Positions 7,411 to 7,440 of a stretch of 12,821 bases of DNA are shown one piece after another. This stretch comes from a virus: the UHGV virus genome UHGV-0294068; one strand, 5' to 3'. How positions within the stretch are numbered: the first letter of the stretch is position 1; each line of letters starts with the position of its first letter. The notes beneath the pieces are model-generated. The model was not told the origin of the DNA, did no database searches, and was given only the letters and a program-made list of their open reading frames with translations. Position numbers and translations under genes: made by a program.

Positions 7411-7440
7411 AGATATGAAAAGACCGCCGGGTGGCGGTCT
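7411..7440 (-). terminator. Candidate intrinsic terminator just downstream of the Cro-like gene (tR1-like position)
   Basis: AGACCGCC-gggt-GGCGGTCT (7421-7440), 8-bp GC-rich stem; minus-strand RNA continues UUUCAUAUCU. Confidence 0.45.

Follow-up and report, generated by a model that had tools for sequence, protein, structure and literature searches.

In phage lambda, termination at tR1 depends on Rho: the C-rich Rho-loading segments rutA and rutB flank a hairpin just after cro, and this boxB hairpin is the binding site of N and has a twin in the pL transcript. Phage HK022 passes its terminators by means of the cis-acting put RNA. HK022 also possesses a far-right operator, located about 300 bp downstream of OR and beyond cro, which is reported to have a share in immunity (Carlson and Little 1993, J Bacteriol 175:7541, summarized in PMC8053113). 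Repressors of the SPC32H type are described as binding DNA as a tetramer with two DNA-binding units (PMC9638917). The stoperators of mycobacteriophages L5 and Bxb1 (see PMC9283540) are asymmetric, number about 20 to 30 and block elongation in one orientation. Closest to the present case is phage phiV10, whose GenBank record (DQ126339.2) annotates a "putative rho-independent terminator" at 33078-33100, downstream of PhiV10p41.

The window, that is, the whole stretch of 12,821 nucleotides of the virus genome UHGV-0294068, was first described on the template of lambda, with a terminator placed like tR1 and an antiterminator N that could not be recognized. By megablast, phiV10 and a dozen related E. 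coli podoviruses matched positions 6900-9300 at 96-99% identity, and the Enterobacter phages Tyrion and BUCT554 matched the same interval at 76-79%. The window is a phiV10/epsilon15-type prophage of the genus Uetakevirus (epsilon15-like phages) and is 98% identical to phiV10. The terminator in the phiV10 record is the same hairpin as that of the window: its context is identical, the DNA identity across the region is 98%, and the two differ at one loop base only. The original prediction of an 8-bp GC stem with a U-rich tail just past the Cro-like stop codon was confirmed in place, with a gap of 21 nt; as the phiV10 record already marks the hairpin, the observation is correct but not new. The annotation in that record is itself a computer prediction, and it marks neither the operator-like site nor the candidate promoter, P2, which we describe behind the hairpin.

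The minus ("rightward") strand of the window carries, in this order, the cro-like gene, the gene for a 66-aa protein, the DnaT/O-like and P-like genes, nin-like genes, the gene for a 115-aa regulator and the small terminase gene (Table 1). The recombination/excision operon and the repressor gene are both on the plus strand, and the phiV10 record names the homologue of this repressor "putative transcriptional repressor." The Cro-like protein showed a mean column identity of 83% in an alignment of 7 homologues. PDB sequence searches with the Cro-like, 104-aa and 115-aa proteins returned nothing useful. The 66-aa protein matched positions 1-66 of the 67 of PHROG 1081 (E = 7.7e-43), and the ATG at 7311 is the start of its homologues too. 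Its gene is the first one behind P2.

TABLE 1 Coordinates of the features of the window, in order along the minus strand
Feature	Position	Strand	Basis or remark
pL, TTGACA-17-AATTAT	8523-8551	+	Bracketed by operators 8489-8503 and 8551-8565, 62 bp apart
Immunity repressor, SPC32H Rep homologue	7847..8431	+	PDB 5d50 "Repressor," E = 4e-42; HTH_3
OR region, three TTACC-N5-GGTAA-type operators	7729-7743, 7760-7774, 7777-7791	.	Motif scan
Candidate pR, TTGTTA-17-TATTAT	7718..7746	-	Promoter scan; overlapped by operator 7729-7743
cro-like gene, 76 aa, epsilon15 gp39 family	7692-7462	-	ORF list; PHROG 35 "transcriptional repressor," E = 2.6e-12
C-rich, G-poor spacer, cro stop to hairpin	7441..7461	-	8 C and 2 G in 21 nt
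Putative terminator hairpin (T1), AGACCGCC-ACCC-GGCGGUCU	7440-7421	-	Fold, terminator scan, conservation
U-rich tail UUUUCAUAUCU (also written TTTTCATATCT)	7420-7410	-	Directly after stem
Operator-like site GTACCTCAAAGGTAA	7406-7392	.	Motif scan; 1 mismatch from TTACC-N5-GGTAA
Palindrome AACCAAATGTGGTT, core CC-N6-GG	7373..7386	.	Alignment read by eye; abuts/overlaps the -35 hexamer
Candidate P2, -35 hexamer TTGATC, includes a GATC site	7374-7369	-	Conservation
Candidate P2, -10 hexamer CAAAAT	7351-7346	-	Conservation; 17-nt spacer from -35
66-aa Cys-rich, putative zinc-binding protein; phiV10 p42/epsilon15 gp40 family	7311-7111	-	
DnaT/O-like initiator gene	7095-6304	-	Pfam DnaT, HTH_36
Five iterons	6713-6841		Within DnaT/O-like gene
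Lambda P-like gene	6322-5522	-	Pfam Phage_lambda_P
Second terminator-like element (T2), GCGC-gata-GCGC, A, seven T	5516-5497	-	After P
Second post-P promoter-like pair, TTGATA-16-TAAAAT	5491-5464	-	Overlaps first operator (5470-5484)
Promoter after P, TTGATT-17-TTTAAT	5450-5422	-	Between operators 5470-5484 and 5408-5422, 62 bp apart
115-aa regulator, basic, Cys-rich	1372-1025	-	Just before third terminator-like hairpin
Third terminator-like hairpin (T3)	975-958	-	Operator-like sites 938-924 and 920-906 follow, before small terminase gene

The stem of the hairpin after cro (AGACCGCC/GGCGGTCT) consists of 8 pairs, 6 G-C and 2 A-U, around the 4-nt loop, with a folding energy of -14.5 kcal/mol, and the 90-nt local fold around it gave z = -3.6 against shuffles. 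The TGA of the cro-like gene lies at 7464-7462, so that the hairpin sits on the transcribed strand inside an 80-nt intergenic gap; a G+C-rich stem-loop soon after a stop codon on the transcribed strand, as looked for in an intrinsic terminator, was thus found. The tail is of moderate quality, UUUU being followed by CAUAUCU (5 U within the first 8 nt). In the scan of the window, this hairpin was the highest-ranked terminator-like site. Hairpins of this class are not rare by chance (20 observed in the window versus about 10 expected, with a shuffle maximum of 23), and the case for this one therefore rests on its position and conservation.

To follow the hairpin across relatives, we collected the sequences downstream of cro from 8 annotated phages, 80 IMG/VR contigs and 9 bacterial genomes of other genera, and obtained a set of 95 usable loci with 65 distinct sequences. 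The detailed comparison covered sixteen lineages, namely, 14 phages or prophages (8-9 genera) and two further E. coli haplotypes; they span E. coli, Enterobacter, Salmonella, Klebsiella, Citrobacter, Kluyvera, Buttiauxella, Pseudocitrobacter and Scandinavium. RNAalifold pair counts understate the structure, since MAFFT set the Salmonella and Klebsiella stems out of register, and per-lineage folds were used in its place on the hairpin segments. A hairpin was present 18-28 nt past the cro stop codon in all 16 lineages, with energies of -9.8 to -15.4 kcal/mol. Its stem varied between lineages yet always paired in the 16 folds, the variants being AGACCGCC/GGCGGTCT, GCCGTCA/TGGCGGC, TGCCGCC/GGCGGCA, GAGGCCGC/GCGGCCTT and AAAGCCACC/GGTGGCTTT. 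The last of these differs from the common GCCGCC/GGCGGC by one pair altered on both sides; Scandinavium has GCCACC/GGTGGC instead. The 39 E. coli haplotypes differed at no more than two stem positions, both changes giving G-U wobble pairs, and the loop varied freely.

The U-tract is less constant than the stem. Buttiauxella, with six T, and Scandinavium have a good tract and the E. coli/Enterobacter type a moderate one, and relatives from Salmonella, Klebsiella and Citrobacter have no U-run, their tail being UCCUUCCUGC or UCCUGCC. Owing to the absence of a U-tract, the epsilon15 hairpin was not flagged by the scanning tool. Since the tract comprises only four U in the window and is missing in several relatives, the hairpin may be conserved for a role other than intrinsic termination, and a substantial part of transcription may read through it. 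From the position of the hairpin and the preservation of its pairing, we infer that termination occurs there, at least in part of the transcripts.

The site at 7406-7392, which had been marked as an operator in the original prediction, proved real and belongs to a family that is over-represented in the window. The core TACC-N5-GGTA (13-mer, at most 1 mismatch) occurs 13 times versus 2.0 expected, a count reached by none of 200 shuffles. Three operators lie between the repressor and cro genes, in a layout kept in 8 of 8 annotated relatives, and two surround pL. The whole phiV10 genome contains 14 TTACC-N5-GGTAA sites (at most 1 mismatch) versus 1.3 expected; all are intergenic except two, which fall within the small terminase gene as annotated, at its 5' end, where the annotation probably reaches too far, and some precede late genes. 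This distribution resembles that of the sites of P1 C1 and of the L5/Bxb1 stoperators, in that many repressor sites occupy noncoding gaps throughout the genome, late genes included. In contrast to the L5/Bxb1 stoperators, the predicted sites described here are palindromic and few.

With respect to the site after cro, both halves are recognizable at the equivalent position in 14 of the 16 lineages, and the right half, GGTAA, is invariant in all 16. Within E. coli, the site varies only at its first two and central 5 bases. The epsilon15 record marks several equivalent sites as repressor binding but not the one after cro. All three rightward terminator-like elements are followed by an operator-like site 14-20 nt further on. 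T2 is annotated as a terminator in phiV10 and is conserved in epsilon15, and the epsilon15 record annotates a T3-equivalent terminator together with a repressor site just before the small terminase gene. The match to the operator consensus and its conservation suggest that the repressor would bind at 7392-7406.

The strongest promoter-like sequences of the window are also tied to these operators. A position-weight scan gave the promoter after P, pL and, in third place, pR as its top three; P2 came 7th of about 128,000 configurations, a rough rank, given the simple matrix of consensus frequencies. The plan at pL reads operator, 19 nt, TTGACA, 17 nt, AATTAT, operator, and that after P reads operator, 18-19 nt, TTGATT, 17 nt, TTTAAT, operator. 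The 62-bp operator pairs at both places are present in 8 of 8 annotated relatives, and the first post-P site is annotated as repressor binding in the epsilon15 record. Two other promoter-like sequences were set aside: a lambda pR'-like TTAATA-17-TAGATT ahead of T3 (1036-1008), which is not conserved in epsilon15, and a plus-strand site antisense to cro (7438-7465), which is not conserved in relatives and was taken as chance.

Past the hairpin, the only long invariant blocks of the 16-lineage alignment are GGTAA, GGTTGATC and AAAAT. The first is the right half of the operator-like site, and the gap from this operator to TTGATC is constant at 17 nt in the 16 lineages. In the same lineages, TTGATC is separated from (C/A/G)AAAAT by 15-17 nt of variable sequence, so the two hexamers are more conserved than the spacer between them, as expected for a sigma-70 promoter. 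The sole -35 change among the E. coli haplotypes converts the last base from C to A, giving TTGATA. The -35 hexamer lies about 47 bp downstream of the hairpin, and the start predicted from the hexamers would fall near 7339, that is, 28 nt upstream of the ATG at 7311, with the operator-like site centered about 60 nt upstream of it. Fifteen of the 16 lineages retain the core of the palindrome at the -35 hexamer. Neither P2 nor its operator is annotated in the phiV10 record; in the literature within reach, no mapped transcript start or end was found for any Uetakevirus member, and the paper on vB_EcoP_ZX5 contains nothing on transcription. The invariance and spacing of the hexamers lead us to infer that P2 is active as a promoter.

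We consider it reasonably probable that cro forms a short insulated unit and that transcription of the replication genes begins anew at P2, a promoter of their own marked by a repressor site. The hairpin would act as a terminator of the intrinsic type, probably with partial efficiency, at the end of a pR-cro unit of about 300 nt. The 66-aa, DnaT/O-like and P-like genes would then be independent of polymerase passing the hairpin and would be started by the sigma-70-type P2, preceded at about -60 by a single operator of the phage repressor. Along these lines, the rightward arm would be a chain of units, with pR, cro and T1 followed by P2, the replication genes and T2 and then by the post-P promoter and the nin-like genes up to T3. 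Each unit would end in a terminator with an operator next to it and, at the first two junctions, a promoter as well. Units promoted separately in this manner would make a lambda-type N antiterminator unnecessary. Of the three alternatives that the original prediction had left side by side, namely, constitutive partial read-through, an antiterminator that escaped recognition, and a secondary promoter at the operator-marked site, the last is thus the one that we retain, complemented with the TTGATC/(C/A/G)AAAAT pair 17 nt downstream of the operator. Partial read-through is possible in addition, and transcription reading through from pR may well add to that from P2.

The hairpin and the lone operator might go further and form a conserved insulator and looping module, a reading that we put forward tentatively and regard as rather unlikely as a whole. 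A repressor tetramer would bridge the third OR operator and the site at 7406-7392, looping out cro and shutting both pR and P2, an action of which the HK022 far-right operator is also suspected; upon derepression, replication would proceed from P2 independently of pR. Where relatives lack the U-tract, the hairpin would work together with Rho or protect a 3' end. Bridging of OR to this site is conceivable because repressors of the SPC32H type bind as tetramers. A site matching the OR/OL consensus was found a few hundred base pairs past OR and beyond cro, 337 bp from the nearest OR site, in a position comparable to that of the HK022 far-right operator. The two systems differ in the repressor, which is a lambda-type CI in HK022 and an SPC32H-type Rep here, and the operator of the window is putative. 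If the looping module were true, the genome would be organized as units gated directly by the repressor, each after a terminator, with no antitermination cascade.

Among the rival explanations, a leaky terminator on its own fares best, although we find it unlikely. In this case, pR would be the sole promoter, the hairpin would be an attenuator setting the ratio of cro to replication gene expression by constitutive read-through, and the conserved TTGATC and CAAAAT would be leader or protein-binding sequences. Read-through is to be expected with a U-tract as weak as that of the window (UUUUCAUAUCU), which several relatives lack altogether. Several features of P2 also speak for such an attenuator: P2 matches just 8 of 12 consensus positions and is below the threshold of the scanning tool; an operator centered at about -60 does not occlude RNA polymerase and is badly placed for repression; and conservation runs past the -10 hexamer into the leader, where AATAACA precedes the ribosome-binding site, and is therefore in part not promoter specific. 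Against it, the invariant blocks coincide with the key -35 and -10 positions, 15-17 nt apart across a variable spacer. They also survive an exchange of the neighboring genes, since in TL-2011b-type phages an unrelated replication module starts right after TTGATC, and CAAAAT nonetheless persists 16 nt further on. Finally, besides ranking 7th in the window, P2 mirrors the layout of the phage's own pL and post-P promoters, all three reading operator, 17-19 nt, TTGAxx, 16-17 nt, an A/T-rich -10 and TACC. The likeness is incomplete, because pL and the post-P promoter are bracketed by two full operators, whereas P2 has one and at most a half-site: its second operator is reduced to TACC in the best case and is degraded further, to GACC, in the window.

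The sequence between cro and the hairpin raises the question of Rho. Over 12 lineages, the spacer from the stop codon to the hairpin contains 104 C versus 16 G in 250 nt (42% C, 6% G); it is C-rich and G-poor in every lineage tabulated, though its sequence drifts. Rho-dependent termination after cro would agree with this composition in a spacer of unconserved sequence, with the C-rich loops and with the C/U-rich tails without a U-run of Salmonella and Klebsiella, and the hairpin would then chiefly shield the cro mRNA at its 3' end or punctuate a Rho-loading region. Lambda tR1 offers a parallel, since its hairpin, too, has C-rich segments around it and follows cro directly, ahead of the replication genes. 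However, the C-rich stretch extends over no more than about 20 nt besides the loop and tail, and a canonical U-run comes straight after the stem in several lineages (the window/E. coli type, Buttiauxella and Scandinavium), which makes a primarily Rho-related hairpin improbable. The locus also differs from lambda tR1/nutR in its U-tail, its variable loops and the candidate promoter that follows, and in that neither a twin in the pL transcript nor a boxA or an N was found.

The claimed absence of a recognizable N-type protein holds within the searches made. None of 20 ORFs matched an N or Q family in Pfam or PHROGs. Matches to boxA (YGCTCTTWA, 1 mismatch) numbered 5 versus 9.3 expected, none of them close to the leader of pL or of pR. 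Nor was there any sign of a nutL/nutR- or putL/putR-like pair, as the local alignment of the pL and pR transcripts scored 19 versus a shuffle mean of 18.3. Accordingly, neither the lambda arrangement, with an Arg-rich N first in the pL operon and boxA plus boxB in both transcripts, nor the HK022 arrangement, with paired two-stem put RNAs downstream of pL and pR, was found in the window. A permissive Rfam search over the full window gave no match at 7300-7470, a weak negative for put, of which Rfam may hold no model; its only hits, all weak and below threshold, resembled sRNAs and lay at terminators near 8452-8489 and 951-1036. In a six-frame scan for Arg-rich motifs, only noncoding frames carried Arg-rich windows. 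The best stretch, RQMAERAQRDRRREKG (9697-9750), lies in an alternative frame within the exonuclease gene and was rejected as noise; in Tyrion, SPN1S, BUCT554 and the Pseudocitrobacter prophage, stop codons interrupt the ORF of that frame (9682-9882). The window scan showed no terminator-like site in the leftward operon that would need read-through.

The particular candidates named for such a role found no support. The 50-aa and 104-aa proteins lack an Arg-rich motif and belong to PHROGs without a known function, and the 68-aa HTH protein comes from a variable position at which phiV10 and epsilon15, both of which bear the hairpin, have no counterpart. A hidden antiterminator driving read-through after induction, whether the 50-aa or 104-aa protein (first in the pL operon, genus-conserved and with no known function), the 115-aa protein (placed just before T3, like lambda Q) or a cis-acting RNA, is very improbable, given the lack of an N/Q family, of an Arg-rich motif in a real frame, of boxA, of an element shared by pL and pR and of an Rfam family, and a promoter behind the terminator would remove the need for it. 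The framing borrowed from lambda, a tR1 with a missing N, does not fit, as the phage is of the epsilon15/phiV10 type and nothing resembling nut or put was found in it.

The hairpin after cro is an ordinary finding, a publicly annotated putative terminator in a type of phage that seems to do without N. Its interest lies almost entirely in annotation, where it indicates that the lambda template is unsuited to epsilon15/phiV10-type prophages; with the early-right arm apparently divided into separately promoted, repressor-marked and terminator-bounded units, the absence of N is to be expected. The by-product of the comparison with lambda is an unannotated candidate promoter, with its operator, before the replication genes. 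For this group of phages, the arrangement may be of use in the engineering of phiV10-based reporter phages and in predicting which prophage genes would leak in lysogens.

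The candidate promoter P2, which lies before the replication genes, spans a mosaic junction in some relatives. In phage TL-2011b (2430-2480), we found a mosaic junction exactly where the -35 hexamer TTGATC ends, and the same junction occurs in seven IMG/VR loci (L021, L025, L030, L043, L051, L069, and L079). In all eight, the sequence 5' of the junction is almost identical to that of the window, and the 3' side carries an unrelated replication module in which the CAAAAT -10 hexamer is still correctly spaced. The -35 hexamer contains a GATC site and overlaps a palindrome whose CC-N6-GG core is kept in 15 of 16 lineages; neither pL nor the promoter following P has a counterpart of this palindrome. 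The positions of these and the other features are collected in the table.

Features of the window and their positions
Feature	Position	Strand	Remarks
Repressor-type sites	906-938, 5408-5484, 7392-7406, 7729-7791, 8489-8565		
115-aa protein	1025-1372	-	Basic, Cys cluster at C terminus; PHROG 536 "transcriptional regulator"
Five repeat copies	6713-6841		18-24 nt each, core CCCGTTTT(T/C)GGG; within DnaT/O-like gene
Palindrome	7373-7386		AACCAAATGTGGTT, core CC-N6-GG; overlaps -35 hexamer of candidate P2
Untranslated spacer	7441-7461		From cro stop codon to hairpin
68-aa winged-helix protein	9036-9242	+	Between conserved 104-aa gene and exonuclease gene
Hairpin	10946-10966		G+C rich, no U-tail; between RecT-like and AlpA-like excisionase genes
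Adenine methylase	11626-12288		Phage's own

The spacer between the cro-like gene and the terminator-like hairpin has homologues in L002-L008 and L093-L097; over 12 lineages it is 42% C and 6% G, a C-rich, G-poor composition similar to that of a Rho-loading site, with no conservation of the sequence itself. A 408-nt, low-coverage contig filed under the myxobacterium Corallococcus exercitus (NZ_RAVW01000927.1) carries a gene whose Cro-like product shares 97% identity with the one in the window; in all likelihood, enterobacterial DNA has contaminated that assembly. Further along, the repeats in the DnaT/O-like gene are probably origin iterons, like those in the lambda O gene.

Elsewhere, the slot of the 68-aa protein is variable, being empty in phiV10 and epsilon15 and occupied by different small genes in Tyrion and BUCT711. 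The counterpart of the hairpin lacking a U-tail is labeled "stem-loop; transcriptional pausing" in the epsilon15 record.

The 115-aa protein, which epsilon15 gp49 resembles, is a candidate late-gene regulator, judged by position. Its gene stops just upstream of a terminator-like hairpin (975-958), followed by two operator-like sites and then the small terminase start, with no good sigma-70 promoter between hairpin and start. A promoter-like site near the gene (1036-1008) was discarded, as it is not conserved in epsilon15.

Across the whole phiV10 genome, we counted 14 predicted repressor-type sites (TTACC-N5-GGTAA, at most one mismatch) versus 1.3 expected. By annotation all are intergenic except two; both of these fall in the small terminase gene as annotated, at its 5' end, where the annotation is probably over-extended. 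Sites lie ahead of the small terminase gene and the portal/head operon, close to the antirepressor gene, in the divergent regions at the tail fibre and the O-acetylase, and 5' of int; some are already marked in the epsilon15 record. This dispersal of predicted sites points to direct control of many phiV10 units by the repressor.
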